From the NCBI GenBank assembly GCA_945787655.1, contig CALZIJ010000001.1, positions 1,726 to 65,725 of the forward strand: 64,000 bases of DNA, read 5' to 3'. The translations under genes and the position numbers were made by a program. The stretch is from Nitrospiria bacterium. Its GTDB lineage: Bacteria > Nitrospirota > Nitrospiria > SBBL01 > JAADHI01. The notes beneath the pieces are model-generated. The model was not told the DNA's origin, did no database searches, and saw only the letters and a program-made list of their open reading frames with translations. This document shows positions 40,144-55,028 of the stretch, in pieces; the first letter of the stretch is position 1, and every line of letters starts with the position of its first letter.

Positions 40144-40213
40144 CCCCATTTTCTATTAATAATCAAATCCGCACGTTATTGAAAACAAAATGTGATTTTA
40201 CAAGCTTCAGGCC

Positions 40214-40241
40214 TTGACAGAAGTAAGGTTTTTGGTAACTT
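40214..40241 (+). promoter_or_regulatory. sigma70-like promoter driving the riboswitch leader
   Basis: TTGACA (40214-40219), a 16-nt spacer, then TAACTT (40236-40241). Confidence 0.45.
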
Positions 40242-40247
40242 TAAGTT

Positions 40248-40352
40248 GTCTGGAAAAAGGCAAACCGGTCGAAAGGCCGGGACGCAAAGCCACAAGGCTT
40301 CGTCCACGAGTTGATTGCTTGTGGACATGCCGGTTGGGCCACCGAGGATGCC
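40248..40352 (+). promoter_or_regulatory. c-di-GMP-I (GEMM-I) riboswitch aptamer
   Basis: The first core is GGCAAACC followed by a GAAA-tetraloop hairpin (CCGGTC-GAAA-GGCCGG). The second is GGGACGCAAAGCC followed by a hairpin (CCACAAG...CTTGTGG). Both line up with the V. cholerae Vc2 cores GGCAAACCAUUCGAAAGAGUGGGACGCAAAGCC. Confidence 0.8.
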
Positions 40353-40398
40353 CGAATTACGGAAAAAACCCCGTCACCGAGTATCTTGTTACTGTGTG

Positions 40399-40428
40399 GC
40401 CCATTTCTTAAATGAAATGGGCTTTTTT
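40399..40428 (+). terminator. intrinsic terminator, probable riboswitch expression platform
   Basis: A 9-bp stem forms between GCCCATTTC and GAAATGGGC with a 6-nt loop, followed by TTTTTT. It lies ~45 nt after the aptamer and ~105 nt before the CDS. Confidence 0.75.
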
Positions 40429-40534
40429 ATTGGGGAAACCATCATCTTATTTACAATCGGTTTGAACACCCATGAAATAGCCCTCTATTCACGGCAGGGG
40501 TCACAGCCTGCCTTAATACAGGGGGAAACCATCA

Positions 40535-43204
40535 ATGAAGAAGTATCTTTATCTTTCTGCACTCTTTTTTGCGACCGCAGGGTTGGCGGCTTGCGGCGGA
40601 AGTAGTTCAAGTTCGACCACAACGACGTCAAAAACCGGTCTTTCTTTACCTACAGAAATTTCAGCCGTTCCCACAACCGCTTCAAATACGACGAAAGTTG
40701 GGCTTAAATCCAAATTATCCGCATTACGGGCCGCAACAGATGCGGACACGGATTATTCAAATGCATCGACCACCACATTTGTCAATGAACATACCTTGGA
40801 ACAATTCGCCATTATTGAACAGGTTCTCGGCGCGCTGGGTCAAACACACTATGCCGATGCGAGTAATGTCGGCCAAGGCGCTTATAAAGCCATGGTGGCC
40901 TGGCAAGATGAGCAAAATGGCGTTGAAACCAAATCACTTCAACCCTGGATTGTCCAATCCGATATCATCGTCGAAAATGGCGCTGAAGTGACCCGCGCGC
41001 GGGCCTGGATTGAAGAAGTTGAAGAGGGACAAAAAGAAGTAATCAAAGCAGAATTTAAAATCTATGAAGCTGCTACCCAGGACAGCTCCGGGGCATACAC
41101 CAGCTACGGGGTCTGGACATTAAATGTCAAATTCGGAGACGAAGGCACAGACTTTTTTGCGGCATCCGCAGAAGTGGGTTCCAATGGCGAATCCATCATT
41201 AAACTCCACGAACGCTTCCCGGAAGGGGAAGGTTTTGTTTTTGAAGTGAAAGCCATCTTAAACAAATCCGCTACCAGTGGGTTTGGGAAAGTCTCTTTTC
41301 CAGATTGGGACAGCTGTACAGAACATCCTTGTATGCCGACCGCTGTCGAGGCCAAATATGCCTACAATGCCAACCATTTAGCGGTTCAAAAGGCGGGGGA
41401 ATCCGAACCAACGTTCAAAGACCGGGCGGATATCACAGAAATGACCCATCGTTATGGTTTATTTGACAGCACAACGGGAGATAATCTTTTTAAAACAAAA
41501 TCATTCGGATTCCCGGTTTTCTTTACGGACGACAACGGATTCAGACAGTATGCCTATTACGGGGCCTGGCAAGGCCGTCATGAGCTTTGGGGCGGCGGCG
41601 AAAGCGGCGTGGCTTCCGGAACCGTCGTCACGCGGGATGACCATGGCGGCAGTGAAACGGCTGCCACCTATACCGTCTCTCCTTCCTTTCAGGGAACACT
41701 GACCAAAAGATCTCTGGTCGCCGGGGCATTGGGCGATATTCTGGATATTCCGGTGGAAACCTGGATCAACAAACATTATGATCTTTTCCACGATGGAACA
41801 AACTGGACCTATTGCACGGGATGGATTGATTTTGGCCAGAGTCCTCCTGCGTGTATGAATCATGATGGCTCTTCCGGGTCCTTTGTGAACTTTACCGATT
41901 TTAACAGTCTGGTTGTCGGCGAACAAGATCGCAAGTTTGTCGGTATCGGCCGGTGGGATCAATCACAAAATCAACAAAAAGACTATGTCTATCTCAGTGC
42001 CGACCCTGGCCTCACGGGTTACACCACAGCCGGTTTCTATGAAGCCCAGCACGGCATGGAAGGACTGTCTCCCATTAGTCCGGCAGAAAGACTGACTGAA
42101 ACCAGCGGCACTCAGCTCTGGGTGGATATCGGCGGGTCTATTTATATTCAGTATACCGGCGAATTCAGCGGGCCAACCACAACGACGGGATGGGTTCAAA
42201 AAACCTTGGAAAACTTTGATCAGCGCACCTGGACGCCTGAATTTGCGACCAATGGTGACAGTGCCTTTACCCCGGCACCGGGTCAGGAATACTACATTAA
42301 CAGCAATGGCGCCAATTTCGTGGTAAGGCGGAAAGACAACAGCGGGACCATTTCTGCTAATTCTTATGAAGTGATGGTAGAGCTGCAAAAAACAGCCAAT
42401 CCAAACAACTTCTCTTCCATGCTCCCGACGGGAACGGATTATCTGCGCACCCCTTGGCGCCAGGAAGTCCGTTACACCTTTGTCACCACAACTGGAAGCA
42501 ATTTCCTCACCTTGCAGTATCTTTCGGATGATTCGAATACGCAGGATGTGGATGAAAGTGTAACGCCGACAGTGGTCACCAGCGGTGAGTGGGGCCTTCA
42601 GGCCTATGACGATAACGGGACCCCCAGCGATTTTACAGATGACATGCCGCTTCAGTCAGACGGGACAGGCGTTACTGTAGATGAATGGGGGAATTCTTCC
42701 GATCCGGACATTCGCCCGGTCCAGTTCAACTGGGAATATTCAGAGAATGGCGGCTGGGGCAACCAGAAATTCCTGATCGACGGGGACGGCAATTACGTCT
42801 TGCTGAGCGATCCGGTCCAGTTACAAGCGGTCACTTTGACCAACAATGGCGGGGACTCCAAAACCTTATCCCTGCAATACGATGGCTGGATGCATGGCTT
42901 GCCGAACTTGTTTGAAGATCTTCGCAAAAATGATTTTGTCATGAACGCGACTATTTCTGACAAGATTATTAACATCCCGGCCGGCACCGAAGTCACGGAT
43001 GCAGTGGACACCACCAAGAGCTACCTCATCAAGCCTCTTGAGGTAAGCCAGTTCCTGAATCCGGTGTCAGACCCCGGCGGGCTTGACATCACCGTCGCGG
43101 ATTCAGTCGATCTGTCGAGTGTCCCGGATTTCGTGGAGCATGGCATGGGTGACATCCCCACCGTGACCGTCACGAAATATTCGGAAGGCATTCTGATCGA
43201 ATAG
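40535..43204 (+). CDS. large uncharacterised lipoprotein (889 aa) downstream of the c-di-GMP riboswitch
   Basis: The lipobox is GLAAC-GG, followed by a Ser/Thr-rich linker (SSSSSTTTTS). The RBS is GGGGGAAA. There are no CxxCH or catalytic motifs, and the sequence is rich in Gly, Asp, Thr, Trp and Tyr. Confidence 0.85.
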   Translation: MKKYLYLSALFFATAGLAACGGSSSSSTTTTSKTGLSLPTEISAVPTTASNTTKVGLKSKLSALRAATDADTDYSNASTTTFVNEHTLEQFAIIEQVLGALGQTHYADASNVGQGAYKAMVAWQDEQNGVETKSLQPWIVQSDIIVENGAEVTRARAWIEEVEEGQKEVIKAEFKIYEAATQDSSGAYTSYGVWTLNVKFGDEGTDFFAASAEVGSNGESIIKLHERFPEGEGFVFEVKAILNKSATSGFGKVSFPDWDSCTEHPCMPTAVEAKYAYNANHLAVQKAGESEPTFKDRADITEMTHRYGLFDSTTGDNLFKTKSFGFPVFFTDDNGFRQYAYYGAWQGRHELWGGGESGVASGTVVTRDDHGGSETAATYTVSPSFQGTLTKRSLVAGALGDILDIPVETWINKHYDLFHDGTNWTYCTGWIDFGQSPPACMNHDGSSGSFVNFTDFNSLVVGEQDRKFVGIGRWDQSQNQQKDYVYLSADPGLTGYTTAGFYEAQHGMEGLSPISPAERLTETSGTQLWVDIGGSIYIQYTGEFSGPTTTTGWVQKTLENFDQRTWTPEFATNGDSAFTPAPGQEYYINSNGANFVVRRKDNSGTISANSYEVMVELQKTANPNNFSSMLPTGTDYLRTPWRQEVRYTFVTTTGSNFLTLQYLSDDSNTQDVDESVTPTVVTSGEWGLQAYDDNGTPSDFTDDMPLQSDGTGVTVDEWGNSSDPDIRPVQFNWEYSENGGWGNQKFLIDGDGNYVLLSDPVQLQAVTLTNNGGDSKTLSLQYDGWMHGLPNLFEDLRKNDFVMNATISDKIINIPAGTEVTDAVDTTKSYLIKPLEVSQFLNPVSDPGGLDITVADSVDLSSVPDFVEHGMGDIPTVTVTKYSEGILIE

Positions 43205-43243
43205 TCTCCTTCCTCGCGGGGTTTTACCGCGTCGAAATAAAAA

Positions 43244-43270
43244 GGGGGTGCAGAAATGCATCCCCTTTTT
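43244..43270 (+). terminator. rho-independent terminator after the 889-aa gene
   Basis: GGGGGTGCA-GAAA-TGCATCCCC forms a stem with one G-U pair, followed by TTTTT. Confidence 0.7.
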
Positions 43271-43336
43271 ATTTGCCTCATCCCCTTGACTTCAAAAGGA
43301 GGGCTGTCTATAGTTTTTAATTTTGCTTGGGTGAAT

Positions 43337-44596
43337 ATGTCAAAAATCAAGGCCCTCAAAGGGTTTAAGGACCTGATTCCAGGAGAATCAGAACACTGGG
43401 AAGTCGTGGCTGATATGGTTCGGGATACCTTTAAGGCCTTTGGTTTTTCACCCATCCGCACTCCGATTCTGGAAAGAACCACCCTCTTTACGCGCAGCAT
43501 TGGCGAAACCACGGACATCGTTGAAAAAGAAATGTACACCTTTGATGACTGGGATAAAAAACCCGTCACACTCCGTCCGGAAGGGACCGCGTCCGTCGTC
43601 CGGGCATTTCTTGAACACCGGCACCTTATGCCTCTATTGCCCGTCAAGTTGTATTACCAGGGCCCGATGTTCCGCCACGAAAGGCCACAGGCCGGACGGC
43701 TTCGGCAATTTCATCAGGTGGGGGCTGAGATACTTGGCGACATCGATCCCAAACAGGATATAGAGCTTCTCTCACTCTTGACCCATTTTTTTGACCGCAT
43801 CGGCCTTCAGGATCTCACTTTAGAAATAAACAGCCTGGGTTGTACCGTTTGTCGGCCCCCGTATCGTAAGGCATTGCAGCAATATTTTAAGACCTCACTT
43901 GAAAACCTTTGCAAAGACTGCAACCGGAGGTTTCACCATAATCCTTTGCGGATTCTGGATTGTAAAAAAGAAACCTGTAAAACCATCACCAAAAATGCGC
44001 CGTCCTCATCGGCCCACCTTTGCGAAGCATGCGAACTCCACTTTAAATCGGTTCGGCAAGGACTGGATGATCTAAAAATTCCCTATCAACATACGAAACA
44101 TTTGGTTCGCGGGTTGGATTATTACACCAAAACGGCTTTTGAAATGACCACGCAAAACCTGGGCGCCCAAAATGCCGTGGCCGCAGGCGGCCGATACGAC
44201 GGACTGGTGGAAGCCCTTGGCGGCCCAAGCACACCGGCGATCGGGTTTGCCCTGGGAATGGAACGCTTGATGCAATTGTTGCCAGAGCAGCCTCATCTTG
44301 CTTCGAACCTTAAGCTTTTTATCGCACCGTTGGGGGAAAATGCGTATCAAAAACTTTTCCCGATACTTTACGCCCTGCGCAAAAAAAATTGCCGCAGTGA
44401 AATTGGTCATCCAGGTGCGGCATTAAAAAAACAAATGAAAACTGCTGACCGCCTTCAGGCAGAATATGTTCTCATTGCAGGTGATCAGGAATTATCCGCC
44501 CAAAAACTGGTATTGCGTAATATGAGTACGAAAAAACAAACCGAAATCGGTTTTTCCAATCTTCTGGACACCCTCTTTTCAGAAATTTTTAAATAA
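43337..44596 (+). CDS. hisS: histidine--tRNA ligase
   Basis: It has KGFKDL, the class II motif 2 (MFRHERPQAGRLRQFHQ) and GGGRYDGL. I chose the start at MSKIKALKG rather than the upstream ATG at 43256. Confidence 0.93.
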   Translation: MSKIKALKGFKDLIPGESEHWEVVADMVRDTFKAFGFSPIRTPILERTTLFTRSIGETTDIVEKEMYTFDDWDKKPVTLRPEGTASVVRAFLEHRHLMPLLPVKLYYQGPMFRHERPQAGRLRQFHQVGAEILGDIDPKQDIELLSLLTHFFDRIGLQDLTLEINSLGCTVCRPPYRKALQQYFKTSLENLCKDCNRRFHHNPLRILDCKKETCKTITKNAPSSSAHLCEACELHFKSVRQGLDDLKIPYQHTKHLVRGLDYYTKTAFEMTTQNLGAQNAVAAGGRYDGLVEALGGPSTPAIGFALGMERLMQLLPEQPHLASNLKLFIAPLGENAYQKLFPILYALRKKNCRSEIGHPGAALKKQMKTADRLQAEYVLIAGDQELSAQKLVLRNMSTKKQTEIGFSNLLDTLFSEIFK

Positions 44597-49952: not shown

Positions 49953-52115
49953 TCAGAGATTTATCATTTTTAATATTTTCGATATTTTTGCTTTAAGATT
50001 ATCGGGAATATCCTGTTTGAGCGCTGTTTCCAAATGTGGAAGGCCAAGGTGCATTTCCTCATTTTTTACATAAGCCATACCCAAGTGGTATTTATATAAC
50101 CCTTTGTCCGGGTTTTTATTGACAAGTGGGTCCAAAATTTCAATGGCTTGTTGATAATCTCCATTGAGATAATACCACCAGCCCAATGTATCATTGATTT
50201 GATCATTTTTAGGCGCCACGCTAATTGCCTGTCTGATATAGGAGTAGGCTGTGGTTTTATCTTCAAAGTGATTTAATAGTATCCAAGCCAAATTGTTGAG
50301 CAGCATGTCATCTTCGGGGAAATATGCCAGCCCTTTTTCATAGACTTTTCGGGCGTGAATATAATCTTTATTTTTTTCGTATAAAATACCCAAGGCCTGA
50401 TAAGATTTGATAAATTGAGGATGCATTTCAATCAGCCTGTTTAACAAGGTCATTGCCGAAGCGGCATCCCCTTTTTCAGACGCGATTTTGGCTTTCATAT
50501 AATGGGCCGCCGTATTGTTATGATTGAGAAGAATGGCCTTTTCAAGATGTTTATCCGCCAGGCCCAAAACACCCTCTTCTAAATAATATTGCCCCATTAA
50601 GGCGTGAGATAAAAACCCGGCCTGATGATCCAGATAGGGAGCAAGATGGTCATCAACCTGTCTTGGCTCCACCTTTTCTTGCTTTAAAAGTTCAAGTTCC
50701 AGGAAGAGCCGTTCGACATACCTTGGGTCTATTTCAGAGATCTGCTTTCTGGCCTCTGATAGCTGTTTGTTATTTATTGCGGTCAGGGCATTGAAATAAA
50801 AATAGAGATTATTCCGGCTATCCAGTTTTTGAAGCACTTCAAATTCATACCGGGCTTCTTCCAGCCGGCTTTGCAAATAAAGGGCAACGCCGTTCATGGC
50901 GTGTCCACTCCTGTTGTCGGGCTCAATCTGCAGGACCAGTTTGGCATGATCCGCCGCCAGGTCATATTGATTGGACAACAGATAAAGCCCCGCCAATAAT
51001 AGGTGGGCCTGAATATAACCCGGATTGTTTTGTATGGCCTTTTTTAAAAACTGTTTTGACAGCCTCGGTTTGTTTTGGAGCAAGTGCGTCAAACCCAGAT
51101 AATAATTGATTTCGTATGAGGACGGACTGACCACGAGTGCCTTGTTAAAACTGGACAGTGCACTGTCCACGTCCCCGGCCCGCAAATGATATTCTCCCAG
51201 CAACATCGCACCATAATAACGCTCGTTTTTTTTATCCTCATCGAGACCGGCCTGATTCAATTTTTCAATCAGGCGGGAAGCCGCCAGGTTTTTCCCCAAA
51301 TCCAGGTTCGTTTTAATGGCTCTAATGATTAGCGCCAGGGAATCCGGATGATGTTTTAAGGCATTCAAATAAATTTCATTGGCCCCGGAAAGGTTGTTTC
51401 GCTTGATGTATACCGTGCTGAGGGCCATGGATAAATTGATATCATCGGGATACGTTTTTAGTTTGCCCTCCAAATGAATCTCTGCCTCCCGGCTGCGGTC
51501 TGTCGACAAATAAAAATTCGCCAGTGCAATATCTGCAACAGTCCCTTCTTTAGACCGCCTTACGGCTTCTAAATAATATTCCTCCGCTTTTTTAAAATCC
51601 CTTTGTTTCAAAAAACTGTTGGCGAGTCCGACATAGCCTTTAATAAAATTTTCATCCTGTTTCAGAGCGGCCCGATAATATTTTTCAGCGTCGTCAAACA
51701 ACTCCTTTTTTAAATTAATATTTCCCCTCAAAAGCGCCGTTTCCGGTGATTGCCCAAACGCAGATTCCATTTTGTCAACAAGCTTTTCTACCCTGCCCGT
51801 CTCACCCAGTAATAGATACAAATAAGCAATCTCTATTTTTGTGGACAGGGGTTGGGGGCTCACTTTTTTGTAAGCCTTTAAAGCCCTCCTCAAATCCCCC
51901 AACTTAAGATAGGACAAGCCCTTAATTGTATAATATTCCGATGTTTTCAACTGGTTATCGTGGATGTCATTTAACAAGACAAGGGCCTGTGTATATTGGT
52001 TATCATCCAATGCTTGGCGTGCCCGGACGAGAGGCCCCATACTCCCCTCATGATTCGCCCTTGAGCAAGAGAGTAAGAAACTCAATAAAAGAATAGATAC
52101 GCCTAGCGTTTTCAC
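49953..52115 (-). CDS. TPR-repeat lipoprotein (720 aa)
   Basis: The lipobox is LLSC. At least 15 TPR-like repeats span the whole length, with the recurring pattern A...Y..AL...P....A...LG..Y. Confidence 0.7.
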   Translation of the reverse strand: MKTLGVSILLLSFLLSCSRANHEGSMGPLVRARQALDDNQYTQALVLLNDIHDNQLKTSEYYTIKGLSYLKLGDLRRALKAYKKVSPQPLSTKIEIAYLYLLLGETGRVEKLVDKMESAFGQSPETALLRGNINLKKELFDDAEKYYRAALKQDENFIKGYVGLANSFLKQRDFKKAEEYYLEAVRRSKEGTVADIALANFYLSTDRSREAEIHLEGKLKTYPDDINLSMALSTVYIKRNNLSGANEIYLNALKHHPDSLALIIRAIKTNLDLGKNLAASRLIEKLNQAGLDEDKKNERYYGAMLLGEYHLRAGDVDSALSSFNKALVVSPSSYEINYYLGLTHLLQNKPRLSKQFLKKAIQNNPGYIQAHLLLAGLYLLSNQYDLAADHAKLVLQIEPDNRSGHAMNGVALYLQSRLEEARYEFEVLQKLDSRNNLYFYFNALTAINNKQLSEARKQISEIDPRYVERLFLELELLKQEKVEPRQVDDHLAPYLDHQAGFLSHALMGQYYLEEGVLGLADKHLEKAILLNHNNTAAHYMKAKIASEKGDAASAMTLLNRLIEMHPQFIKSYQALGILYEKNKDYIHARKVYEKGLAYFPEDDMLLNNLAWILLNHFEDKTTAYSYIRQAISVAPKNDQINDTLGWWYYLNGDYQQAIEILDPLVNKNPDKGLYKYHLGMAYVKNEEMHLGLPHLETALKQDIPDNLKAKISKILKMINL

Positions 52116-52120
52116 GCGGA

Positions 52121-53167
52121 TTACACCCTTAAAAAAACCAGAAAAAATACCTTTGCCAGCATTTTTAAAAATAACAACAACAGCGTCAGTACAATAATTG
52201 AAATAATTTTGTTATTTAAAAAATACGCATATAATTTGGCGATACTTTTAAATAAACCATCAATCCAGGTGGACTCTTTTTTCGCCCCGGCACTTAATAT
52301 GATCGAACGTGTATTTAATGTGAATGTTTTTGCACTTTCAGAATTAACCTGTTCCCGTGATATTTTTTGTTGCGGCAGCACGTGTTCCTTTAATCGCCTT
52401 GATGCGGATGAAGCCTGCGCCATACGGCTCGCTTGTTTCTTCTCTCTAAAATCGCGCCTTGCTTTCGTTTCCCGGACGCCCCTTCCTCGACTGCCGGATT
52501 TTTCCCTGGAATCATACGAATAGGTAAAGTAATTATTTTGATCGATGGTCACGGTATGGTTGGGATTAAACAGGTCGGGCCTCTTTTTTGACATTTGAAG
52601 ATATCTTTGATTGACCGCCTCCAGTTCTTTTAAAATGGCAAAAATCCGGGTTTCCTGCTGTATCACTTCAAAATCTTTATTAAAAAAATTCTCCATCTGT
52701 CCCCACAGGGTAAAATCAAAATATTCACTGCGGATATCTTCTTTCATGACCGGATAACTCTTTATCTCAGTAAGTGCTATCATATCCAGATAAGGCTTTT
52801 CGGTGATATTAAAAATGATATTTTCTTTTTTTGAATTGAGGACTGAAAGGGAGCTAAAAATATGGATCTGTCCATCCGTCACTTTCGTATCACGCTTTAC
52901 ATAATCAATAAAATCCTGCTCATCAATGGAAGGAAAAACATGATTGCTTTCTGAAAAAACAAGGGAGGGAGGAGATAACGCCGTCAAAATCAGGCAAGAG
53001 AAGACACCGATCCAAAACAGGCGCATTCGGGTTTTTAAAAAATCCCTGGCTGGCTCGAAAAACCCCATGCTTCTTAAAAAAAAGGCAACGGCAAGAACAG
53101 TAACCTTCAAAAAAACAAACCTCATACGGTATATTATACAAGAACTGAACATAAAAAAAAGTTTCAT
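52121..53167 (-). CDS. hypothetical membrane-anchored protein (AT-rich gene)
   Basis: It has N-terminal hydrophobic segments, a basic Arg/Lys/Ser-rich middle and a C-terminal TM anchor. The start is uncertain (an alternative is the MRLFWIG ATG near 53026). Confidence 0.45.
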   Translation of the reverse strand: MKLFFMFSSCIIYRMRFVFLKVTVLAVAFFLRSMGFFEPARDFLKTRMRLFWIGVFSCLILTALSPPSLVFSESNHVFPSIDEQDFIDYVKRDTKVTDGQIHIFSSLSVLNSKKENIIFNITEKPYLDMIALTEIKSYPVMKEDIRSEYFDFTLWGQMENFFNKDFEVIQQETRIFAILKELEAVNQRYLQMSKKRPDLFNPNHTVTIDQNNYFTYSYDSREKSGSRGRGVRETKARRDFREKKQASRMAQASSASRRLKEHVLPQQKISREQVNSESAKTFTLNTRSIILSAGAKKESTWIDGLFKSIAKLYAYFLNNKIISIIVLTLLLLFLKMLAKVFFLVFLRV

Positions 53168-53243
53168 GTCAAAGAAAGAGAAGAACCTTGAGTATTACAG
53201 AAAATACGCCAGTCGATATCGACCGGGCAGGGCCGTCCTGGAT

Positions 53244-55028
53244 TCATTTTCTTTTTTTCAACTCAGAGATTCCGAACCTCTCGCTGATAATTTTTCTTCC
53301 ACCATCGGTCCCCAGGTCAAACTGGACCTCCAGTTCACCCTGGTTCAGACCCTCCAGTGCGCCCGTTTCCAGCTTCATCCCCCTGACAACCAGAAGCGCA
53401 CCGCCATCTGAAACTTGAAATGACACCTGATCTAAACCCGTAAGTGTCAGTTCTTCTGGACGATTTGTTTTATATTCTGTAATTTTATATTGATTCACCT
53501 TTTTAAAGATAGGCCCAATGGCTTTGAGCAAAAGGGTCACTTCGTACTGCTCATCACGACCTAAAATCCTGACAGGGGCAGGATTTCTTTTTTGCGCAAA
53601 AAGAATCCGCCCTGAAACATGTGTTTTTAATCTGTTTTTCCCGGAAAAAGGCGCATAAAGCGGGTCACCGATCATCACCATCATCCAGCTGGTGTAGGCT
53701 TGTGAGGCCCAATAGGCCTCACCGGCAGACCAGCCATTAAAGAGCCGGGGATAAAACAAATCTGCATGTGGAAATGCATCTAAAAACGGCTCTGAGATCG
53801 GGCCGCTGCAAAACGCGGCACCCTGAGTTAATAATCCCGAACACCAGGGGTTTTTCCCTTGTTTTTTATACCGCCGTATGTCTTTTGCTTCCCCGCTGGC
53901 CGTATGGACCGCTAGTGCTCCCGGAGCCAGACGCCCGCCAAAAATATCCTGAAAATTGGCCAGGGCATACCATCCCCAGTATAAAAACGTATGAGGGCAA
54001 TCCCCTGCTTGCCACAAGGTTTTTTGTTCATCCAGCTTCACTTTAAACCCTGCATTAAAGGCCTCAATATAGGCCCGCCGCACCCAGGCATCACCCAGTT
54101 CATAACCCGTCTTTGCGCGGCCTATGGTTGATTTTTTAGCATCAAAACACCCAATCCCTACCGGGCCGTCTTCTTCGGCCTGTATGGCCAAATCCACCAG
54201 CCCTTTTGAAATCTCGACGGTCGGCCCTTCCAGCCGAGCGGTCAAGTACAATAATCCTGCATTTTTCAGTTTCTTCCTTTCTTTTAACTTCGCCCTAAAC
54301 GCTCTAAATTTCAGACCCTGGGCAAAATAAAGATTTCGAGACCGACCAAAATACGATCGCATCCGGCCCGCTTCACCCACAGATGGGCCATAAACATCGG
54401 ATCTAAAAAGCCAGGCCAACTCGGAATCCACAGCCGATGAATTATCCAGCACGCGCAGGGCATGTTTACGCTGCCCTGCGGGGAGCAAAGCCACAACCTC
54501 CCGCCACACAGGCGCAAGCCTTTTATATTGACTTTTCAGGGTTTCAAGCTCGTGACGCAAACGGCGCGTTTTATGATGTTCTTCTCCTGATTGATCCTGC
54601 CGTTTCAACAAAGCCGCTTCTTTTTGATTGATTTTCTTCTGAAGTGTCGGCGGCAGGGCCACTGGGCCTTTCACTTTGTATGGAACATCGTATACCGTCA
54701 CCAGAGCCAGGACCTTCTCCTTGAGTTCTTTTTTTTCAAGATAGCGTTGAAGCGGGTAGACCAGCTTTTCCTGAAAATCACGGTGCGCAATATAACGATG
54801 ATGTTTTTGATTGGGAAATGACACCGTAAAGAGGTTTTCTTTTGGAATGCTCCGCCGCATCATGTAATACCTGGCGACGGTCATCGAATCCTCCGAGGCA
54901 TCATTCGCAATCACCAATACTTCATCAGGTCGCAAGTTTTTACCCGACGATTCCGCAGCCGCGACCTCATGAACCGCAGGAGACATTCCCCACAATACAA
55001 AAAACCCTGCCAGGATATAAAATCTCAT
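53244..55028 (-). CDS. secreted TIGR03790-like protein (uncharacterised family)
   Basis: A signal peptide is followed by EVLVIANDASEDSMTVARYYMMRRSIPKENLF, resembling the N-terminal signature I recall for TIGR03790. This assignment is from memory only. Confidence 0.5.
   Translation of the reverse strand: MRFYILAGFFVLWGMSPAVHEVAAAESSGKNLRPDEVLVIANDASEDSMTVARYYMMRRSIPKENLFTVSFPNQKHHRYIAHRDFQEKLVYPLQRYLEKKELKEKVLALVTVYDVPYKVKGPVALPPTLQKKINQKEAALLKRQDQSGEEHHKTRRLRHELETLKSQYKRLAPVWREVVALLPAGQRKHALRVLDNSSAVDSELAWLFRSDVYGPSVGEAGRMRSYFGRSRNLYFAQGLKFRAFRAKLKERKKLKNAGLLYLTARLEGPTVEISKGLVDLAIQAEEDGPVGIGCFDAKKSTIGRAKTGYELGDAWVRRAYIEAFNAGFKVKLDEQKTLWQAGDCPHTFLYWGWYALANFQDIFGGRLAPGALAVHTASGEAKDIRRYKKQGKNPWCSGLLTQGAAFCSGPISEPFLDAFPHADLFYPRLFNGWSAGEAYWASQAYTSWMMVMIGDPLYAPFSGKNRLKTHVSGRILFAQKRNPAPVRILGRDEQYEVTLLLKAIGPIFKKVNQYKITEYKTNRPEELTLTGLDQVSFQVSDGGALLVVRGMKLETGALEGLNQGELEVQFDLGTDGGRKIISERFGISELKKRK

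Follow-up and report, generated by a model that had tools for sequence, protein, structure and literature searches.

Introduction

The gap between metG and an 889-residue lipoprotein gene in a 64,000-nucleotide stretch of the Nitrospiria bacterium contig CALZIJ010000001.1 (the whole stretch is called the window here, and coordinates without a locus number refer to it) raises two questions: which signal governs the downstream gene and what kind of protein is being governed. The original prediction, read from the DNA without database searches, placed a promoter, a GEMM-I riboswitch for cyclic di-guanosine monophosphate (c-di-GMP) and an intrinsic terminator in this gap and proposed that they control the lipoprotein by transcription attenuation. 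Covariance-model scans, comparison with related loci, RNA folding and searches with the protein lead us to regard it as likely that the locus is a monocistronic unit of promoter, canonical c-di-GMP-I riboswitch and lipoprotein gene, operating by transcription attenuation, with ligand turning expression OFF as in Cd1; the efficiency of termination, the binding of the ligand and the site where transcription starts are inferred. The riboswitch class and its mechanism are ordinary and well known, and the attraction of the system is the protein that it regulates.

The aptamer

A scan of the whole window with the Rfam models (cmscan) gave a single riboswitch match, at 40250–40347 on the forward strand (clan CL00126, 62.3 bits against a gathering score of 59, E = 2.5e-12), and a permissive rescan of 40150–40560 recovered the same match and nothing further that was credible. 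The match is a c-di-GMP-I (GEMM-I) aptamer composed of a P1b hairpin with a GAAA tetraloop, a P2 helix with an apical extension and a GCUUCG/CAUGC internal loop. Both GEMM-I cores and the GAAA-capped hairpin named in the original prediction are present between 40259 and 40291, as GGCAAACC, CCGGTC-GAAA-GGCCGG and GGGACGCAAAGCC. The window aptamer and those of related loci, 18 sequences in all, align nearly gap-free and share a consensus fold of 22 pairs. Compensatory double changes affect six of these pairs, located in the hairpin with the tetraloop and towards the apex of the second helix; the GAAA loop on the first helix, which is of the GNRA type, is invariant. The covariance model and the 18 aligned homologues pair AGCCACAAGGC with GCCGGTTGGGC in P2 and TCCACGAG with CTTGTGGA in the apical extension. 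The second hairpin originally described, CCACAAG...CTTGTGG, survives as a complementarity of the window sequence but not as a functional pairing, since model and alignment pair other strands.

Vc2 from Vibrio cholerae, the structural reference for RF01051, resembles the window in the arrangement GGCAAACC...GAAA...GGGACGCAAAGCC, in its G20, A47 and C92 equivalents and in the GNRA tetraloop on the first hairpin. The window differs from Vc2 in the longer apical extension of the second helix and in a platform that is a clear Rho-independent terminator, and it departs from the RF01051 consensus in the internal loop, which is not of the CUAAG/UAUG receptor type. Taken as a whole, the riboswitch at 40250–40347 is almost certainly real.

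Binding pocket and expected ligand

Among the Rfam models, the window scores best with RF03167 (c-di-GMP-I-GGC) and not with RF01051. This label, the non-canonical receptor motif and base exchanges in two orthologous leaders (below) all favour a rival reading, in which the RNA is a specificity variant, either c-di-GMP-I-GGC or GEMM-Ib of the cyclic GMP–AMP (cGAMP) type, and senses a ligand other than c-di-GMP. The consensus sequences printed by cmscan, ...GGGACGC-G-AAgCc... for RF03167 and ...ggGACGC-A-AAgCc... for RF01051, differ in a single base within the ligand-contacting segments; in both, a G precedes the GC pair (the position of Vc2 G20), and positions 91 and 92, ahead of the 3' end, are gC/GC. 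Judged from this comparison, the distinguishing pocket base of RF03167 is a G at the A47 position, and the name 'GGC' would stand for G20/G47/C92. In Vc2 structures A47 intercalates. Alignments place the window equivalents of G20, A47, A91 and C92 at G40259, A40286, A40341 and C40342. The window reads GACGCAAAG, with A and not G at the A47 position, as in all 18+13 lineage members; the window and its relatives thus lack the G that the RF03167 model conserves after GGGACGC, and the window is not a member of that group.

At the other diagnostic position, G20 reads Gα and C92 pairs with Gβ, the G20A change marks cGAMP riboswitches and wild-type Vc2 binds cGAMP only at 10 µM (PMC6140456). The window has G40259 where GEMM-Ib would have A, which agrees with the G suspected in the original prediction and with its preference for c-di-GMP over 3'3'-cGAMP. 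Because the G20, A47 and C92 equivalents are canonical, c-di-GMP is the expected ligand, and on these pocket bases it is very probably the right one. The c-AMP-GMP (GEMM-Ib) riboswitches of Geobacter (Gs1761, pilM) share fold and clan with the window, but their diagnostic A20 occurs only in the orthologous leader of locus L022; they are ON switches with a terminator that overlaps the aptamer (PMC9262584), whereas the window combines G20 with an OFF-type architecture.

The RF03167 label itself is a scoring accident, since the top model alternates among orthologous leaders between RF01051 (56–72 bits, gathering score 35) and RF03167 (61–65 bits), the latter leading in about half of them. Its likely cause is the GCUUCG/CAUGC of this lineage in place of the receptor CUAAG/UAUG that RF01051 expects. 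The original prediction was staked on a score above the RF01051 gathering threshold. In the window cmscan reported one extra match of the same clan at or above its own gathering score, masked by clan competition; such masked matches equal the RF03167-best matches in number in two locus scans, and a third is compatible (7 masked; 5 RF03167-best and 9 RF01051-best). Since the two counts track each other, RF01051 would pass its gathering score in the window also, in line with its scores in orthologous leaders.

With a single differing consensus base, at which the canonical A is found in the window and in each of the lineage members examined, with G at the G20 position of the window and with a top model that changes from one ortholog to the next, a specificity variant is highly improbable here. 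Two groundwater Nitrospirae metagenome-assembled genomes (MAGs) are the exceptions at the G20 position, with A in L022 (2129–2220, AAAAAAGCAAACC) and C in L021 (2266–2356, AAAAACGCAAACC), against G in the other lineage members. A20 being the cGAMP-type base, a drift in ligand specificity is possible at these two loci, and as natural variants they offer a compact setting in which to study how such specificity changes. For the lineage as a whole, automated annotation would mislead by placing a GGC label on the window RNA and about half of its orthologs despite a canonical pocket.

Expression platform

An intrinsic terminator with a tract of six Ts, as had been predicted, was located by the terminator scan at 40398–40428 on the forward strand (GGCCCATTTC, loop TTAAAT, GAAATGGGCT, T6; stem 40398–40423). 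It folds with −16.2 kcal/mol (z = −4.0), and across the 16 full leaders that were aligned its 9-bp stem stays 100% paired, a compensatory A-U replacing one of the pairs. The stem sequence GCCCATTTC/GAAATGGGC (40398–40423 in the window) is near-invariant across leaders, though the encoded proteins are only 45–65% identical.

A further conserved helix, an antiterminator, spans aptamer and terminator. Its 5' strand, TGGGCCAC at 40335–40342 on the forward strand, consists of the six bases that end the 3' strand of P2, together with the A91 and C92 equivalents, and is therefore shared with the aptamer. It is exactly complementary over 8 bp to the 3' or switching strand, GTGGCCCA at 40396–40403 on the same strand, which overlaps the 5' arm of the terminator. 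Across the 16 leaders this helix is 94.5% paired, and two of its pairs have changed on both sides, from C-G to U-A and from A-U to G-C; sliding the partner strand by 1–3 columns lowers the pairing to 27–45%, a contrast that is not to be taken as a probability. In leaders from metagenomes a further compensated form, CCGC/GCGG, brings the number of states to three. The antiterminator accounts for the invariance of GCCCA in the terminator stem, but not for that of TTTC/GAAA. A linker hairpin between aptamer and switching strand is 83% paired and contains two compensated pairs.

Folding gave the same picture. For window transcripts ending at 40407–40413 the antiterminator fold has the minimum energy (−67.3 kcal/mol, compared with −56.5 kcal/mol when the aptamer is enforced), and the minimum-energy folds of the nascent RNA contain at least six of the eight antiterminator pairs in 23 of 24 leaders. 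The covarying antiterminator and the terminator together support the originally proposed control of the lipoprotein gene by transcription attenuation.

Aptamer and terminator can coexist, and the antiterminator excludes both. Since the antiterminator draws its strands from the aptamer (3' strand) and the terminator (5' arm), as in the Cd1 layout, the device is read as an OFF switch in which ligand leads to termination. In Cd1 the aptamer is compatible with the terminator, both are in competition with an antiterminator, and ligand causes termination (PMC9262584). Like the window, Cd1, which lies upstream of the flgB flagellar operon of Clostridioides difficile, has a GEMM-I aptamer, an intrinsic terminator that stands apart from it downstream and an antiterminator formed by the aptamer 3' strand and a switching strand, although the behaviour of the window is a prediction. 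The two differ in setting, a flagellar operon of a member of the Firmicutes as opposed to a single lipoprotein gene in Nitrospirota, and the window has a different tetraloop-receptor sequence and a conserved linker hairpin between aptamer and switching strand. Termination near 40428 with c-di-GMP bound and read-through without it is, on this architecture, the probable logic, its ligand dependence and kinetics being what we infer.

The same aptamer might instead work with reversed logic, as an ON switch: bound c-di-GMP would favour read-through, and the lipoprotein would be induced by it, as one would expect of a protein for adhesion or biofilm formation. Many surface proteins under GEMM-I control are, as is generally known, induced by c-di-GMP, an adhesion or biofilm role was what the original prediction proposed, and the antiterminator partly persists in several full-length minimum-energy folds, in which termination is not obviously the default. 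However, the terminator forms a hairpin of its own some 50 nucleotides beyond the aptamer, with which it is compatible, while the sole conserved alternative pairing, that of the aptamer 3' strand (including the C92 equivalent) with the terminator 5' arm, is one that ligand binding removes; no conserved structure was found that sequesters the terminator while the aptamer is folded. We consider an ON switch improbable, and the suggested biofilm or adhesion effector fits poorly with the OFF logic.

The OFF switch would then operate as follows. From a start near 40248, the aptamer at 40250–40347, whose structure is supported by model score and covariation, would fold during transcription. With c-di-GMP bound, the ligand suggested by the pocket bases, TGGGCCAC would be held within the binding pocket and P2, GGCCCAUUUC further downstream would pair with GAAAUGGGCU and polymerase would stop at the U-tract, at about 40428. 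In the ligand-free RNA, GUGGCCCA (40396–40403), once transcribed, would capture the 3' strand of the aptamer; the resulting antiterminator would sequester the 5' arm of the terminator and polymerase would read into the 889-residue open reading frame (ORF). The product would be exported and lipidated at Cys20 and, with Gly at +2, would probably be anchored in the outer membrane if the sorting rule of Escherichia coli applies. The lipoprotein would be made at low c-di-GMP, for example in a planktonic or dispersing state, and be off at high c-di-GMP. As a working hypothesis we take it to be an envelope protein that is anchored in the outer membrane and produced while c-di-GMP is low.

Several points weigh against this reading. 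P1 is weak in the window, where the covariance model flags one non-canonical pair, and the invariant GCUUCG/CAUGC loop at the tetraloop-receptor position departs from the CUAAG/UAUG of the RF01051 consensus. The RF01051 score of the window would lie somewhere between the gathering score of that model and 62.3 bits. The covariation of the antiterminator may stem from few evolutionary events among related sequences, and the thermodynamic folds leave out kinetics, tertiary structure and the energy of ligand binding. Finally, the tie of lipoprotein expression to a physiological state is speculative.

Promoter and transcription unit

The promoter originally read as TTGACA-N16-TAACTT is present at 40214–40241 on the forward strand and is of the σ70 type: a −35 box TTGACA (40214–40219) and a 16-nucleotide spacer precede TAACTT (40236–40241), and TG at 40233–40234 makes an extended −10 element (TGgTAACTT, 40233–40241). 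A generic promoter scan did not score this site, in which TAACTT has three of the six consensus bases, and the evidence for the promoter is therefore its conservation: most related leaders keep the arrangement cTTGACA-N16/17-(TGg)TAtCTT ahead of their aptamer. A start near 40248, as this promoter suggests, would place the aptamer at the extreme 5' end of the transcript.

Beyond the riboswitch terminator, the leader of the read-through mRNA (40429–40534, forward strand) contains the conserved motif CCCATGAAATAGCCCTC, a GGCAG...CTGCC hairpin and a Shine–Dalgarno sequence GGGGGA (40521–40526). The nested hairpin shows some compensatory changes. In the subclade with metG–hisS synteny the post-terminator leader has a conserved CCCrnAAAATAGCyCTC, the GGCAG...CTGCC hairpin and a possible 4-bp CCCT/CTCT pairing with the Shine–Dalgarno sequence. 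This leader may, with weak support, add a second, translational layer of control. A promoter scan of the stretch between the riboswitch terminator and the ATG gave no promoter-like site; a candidate second promoter there, TTGAAC-N18-TATTCA, is not conserved and was rejected.

The lipoprotein gene (40535–43204, forward strand) is followed directly after its stop codon by an intrinsic terminator of its own (43237–43272, forward strand), a 16-bp hairpin and a U-run; the segment 43205–43285 folds with −36.2 kcal/mol (z = −5.8). A promoter-like TTGACT-17-TATAGT for hisS lies at 43286–43314. Given this terminator and the separate hisS promoter-like site, the lipoprotein gene is read as monocistronic and hisS as a separate unit. 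The mechanically called hisS start, ATG 43256, falls within the terminator hairpin of the lipoprotein transcript and homology to HisS begins at residue 28 of that ORF; the true start is probably near 43337, downstream of the promoter-like site.

On the upstream side, neither sequence reading nor the terminator scan found a terminator between the metG stop (40143) and the riboswitch, so that read-through from metG would also be gated by the riboswitch. Read-through from metG would end at 40428, and one may ask whether the element is a decaying or non-regulatory relic whose terminator, in the synteny of the window, mainly ends metG transcripts. Set against this are the conservation of promoter, aptamer, antiterminator and terminator together, even where the upstream gene is divergent (Manganitrophus), the compensatory changes in the helices and the carriage of the unit through gene duplications and one tandem duplication, which make a relic extremely improbable. 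The window is otherwise a housekeeping region, with relA/spoT, metH, tldD/pmbA, metG, hisS, ftsH, degP, leuS, holA and murJ. Elsewhere in it, at 52121–55028 on the reverse strand, two adjacent ORFs of 348 and 594 residues have no Pfam match at E ≤ 1e-5 and adjoin a 720-residue TPR protein (49953–52115).

Distribution of the riboswitch–gene pair

The upstream regions of lipoprotein homologs were compared at 31 loci from species-representative genomes. All Nitrospirota loci among them with a closely related homolog and an intact upstream region carry the aptamer 150–400 nucleotides upstream of the gene. This spacing is seen in the window and at L001–L003, L008–L014, L016–L018, L020–L022 and L031. 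Rfam scans found no aptamer at two more divergent Nitrospirota loci (L024 and L037) or at any of the eleven proteobacterial loci; a lineage-specific model run on the proteobacterial upstream regions gave one weak match (L019, 16.7 bits, E = 0.08), with nothing recognizable in the sequence. At L024 (Nitrospiria MAG D_3_bin.29, 2100–2500) a homolog of 45% identity has a similar promoter, TTGACA-N16-TAGCTT, without aptamer or terminator, and so gives a natural point of comparison, inside Nitrospirota, for a gene that lacks the riboswitch.

Scanning metagenomes for an aptamer pattern specific to the lineage yielded 15 loci, two of them truncated; in 12 of the 13 informative ones the homolog lies directly downstream of the aptamer. 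Altogether the riboswitch precedes the lipoprotein gene in about 30 Nitrospirota or metagenome loci. The remaining metagenome locus (L050, contig Ga0206969_1419, 3543–3636, reverse strand) has a different GEMM-I aptamer, scoring 77 bits on the lineage model, upstream of a 227-residue radical-SAM ORF with a CxxxCxxC motif and a QueE-like look, an unusual gene association for a c-di-GMP riboswitch.

Genomic surroundings vary. The order metG–riboswitch–lipoprotein–hisS is shared by the window, L011, L012 and L031, and the MetG of the window is about 75% identical to those of the MAG loci L011 and L012, which together with the gene order assigns the window to Nitrospirota; in Manganitrophus the riboswitch–lipoprotein unit stands beside a urease cluster. 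Since the context differs between clades, RNA and gene appear to move together. At two Manganitrophus loci, matches to RF02514 (Helicobacter 5' ureB small RNA) at L003:11484–11781 and L002:11643–11938 (forward strand; 98 and 68 bits) lie antisense within a minus-strand Urease_alpha gene and are probably an effect of conserved coding sequence and not a real small RNA.

Candidatus Manganitrophus noduliformans has one promoter–riboswitch–terminator unit, whereas Candidatus Manganitrophus SA1 and a relative from JGI have two tandem paralogs, each with a unit of its own. The SA1 paralogs (L001:5690–6360 and L001:8897–9570) are 61% identical overall, with the first 120 or so residues nearly identical, and from −35 box to ATG their leaders differ at two positions only, both in the promoter spacer. 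This pattern suggests gene conversion of the 5' region. Duplication of the RNA alone is seen at L014 (Nitrospiria MAG D_2_bin.29, 1033–1476), where tandem aptamer-plus-terminator units (aptamers at 1033–1128 and 1305–1400, 57.1 bits each) precede one lipoprotein gene. Tandem c-di-GMP-I arrangements are well documented, with 347 doublets described (PMC9481103); two OFF switches in series at L014 would give tighter, more switch-like repression.

A literature search found no paper linking Manganitrophus or Nitrospirota to a lipoprotein-associated c-di-GMP-I riboswitch or to the lipoprotein itself. The regulon link between this riboswitch and an uncharacterized lipoprotein family is thus apparently both conserved and undescribed.

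The lipoprotein family

The 889-residue protein begins with MKKYLYLSALFFATAGLAAC followed by GGSSSSSTTTTS, which is read as a signal peptide, a LAAC lipobox with Cys20 at 40592–40594 and a Ser/Thr/Gly-rich linker. The lipobox agrees with the pattern [LVI][ASTVI][GAS]C, and Cys20 is invariant in 77 homologs. As originally proposed, the protein is a lipoprotein without a recognizable domain: no Pfam or NCBIfam match was found for the window protein, for 44 family members or for nine of ten distant relatives. It is not an orphan. A word-indexed search gave 322 homologs at E ≤ 0.001, the best 120 of which are 46–67% identical and mostly near full length, and a full profile scan gave 517 cluster representatives at E ≤ 0.001, with 142 at E ≤ 1e-30. 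Named sources are Candidatus Manganitrophus and MAGs of Nitrospiria and Nitrospirota, with proteobacterial homologs from Gammaproteobacteria (including Candidatus Tenderia, Halothiobacillaceae and Pseudomonadales) and Deltaproteobacteria/Geopsychrobacteraceae.

An AlphaFold2 model of the lipoprotein (mean predicted local distance difference test score 86, predicted template-modelling score 0.81) is nearly all β. A sequence-profile search of the PDB gave no match, and neither did Foldseek at E ≤ 0.001 with the full model against the PDB and BFVD or with a model of the N-terminal half against the PDB. The best-probability PDB matches, soluble β-barrels (Osh4 and DUF1849), had probabilities of at most 0.38 and template-modelling scores of at most 0.24 and were set aside as non-significant. 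Profile self-comparison detected no internal repeats.

The family has many invariant aromatic residues. One member (P0167, 1102 residues) carries three N-terminal CHB_HEX_C_1/Fn3_assoc domains before the conserved body, and no other fusion to an annotated domain was seen among the relatives. Both features are weakly compatible with an extracytoplasmic and possibly glycan-facing protein. One could go further and propose a new fold family of envelope proteins whose production is limited to low c-di-GMP in manganese-oxidizing and related lithotrophic Nitrospirota, for example a surface-exposed protein that interacts with glycans or matrix and serves in dispersal or in the handling of mineral surfaces. 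The hints for such a role (the aromatic residues, the domain fusion and the lack of a Foldseek neighbour) are weak, and we hold the proposal as a whole to be doubtful.

Implications

In Manganitrophaceae and neighbouring Nitrospirota, a dedicated OFF switch would travel with a family of lipoproteins of about 850–950 residues through duplications and changes of context, while the proteobacterial homologs do without the switch. An uncharacterized protein family is thereby tied to the second-messenger state of lithotrophs that are hard to culture, with the expectation that it is expressed at low c-di-GMP. Should the envelope-protein proposal prove true, the riboswitch would provide the first regulatory handle on the function of this lipoprotein.

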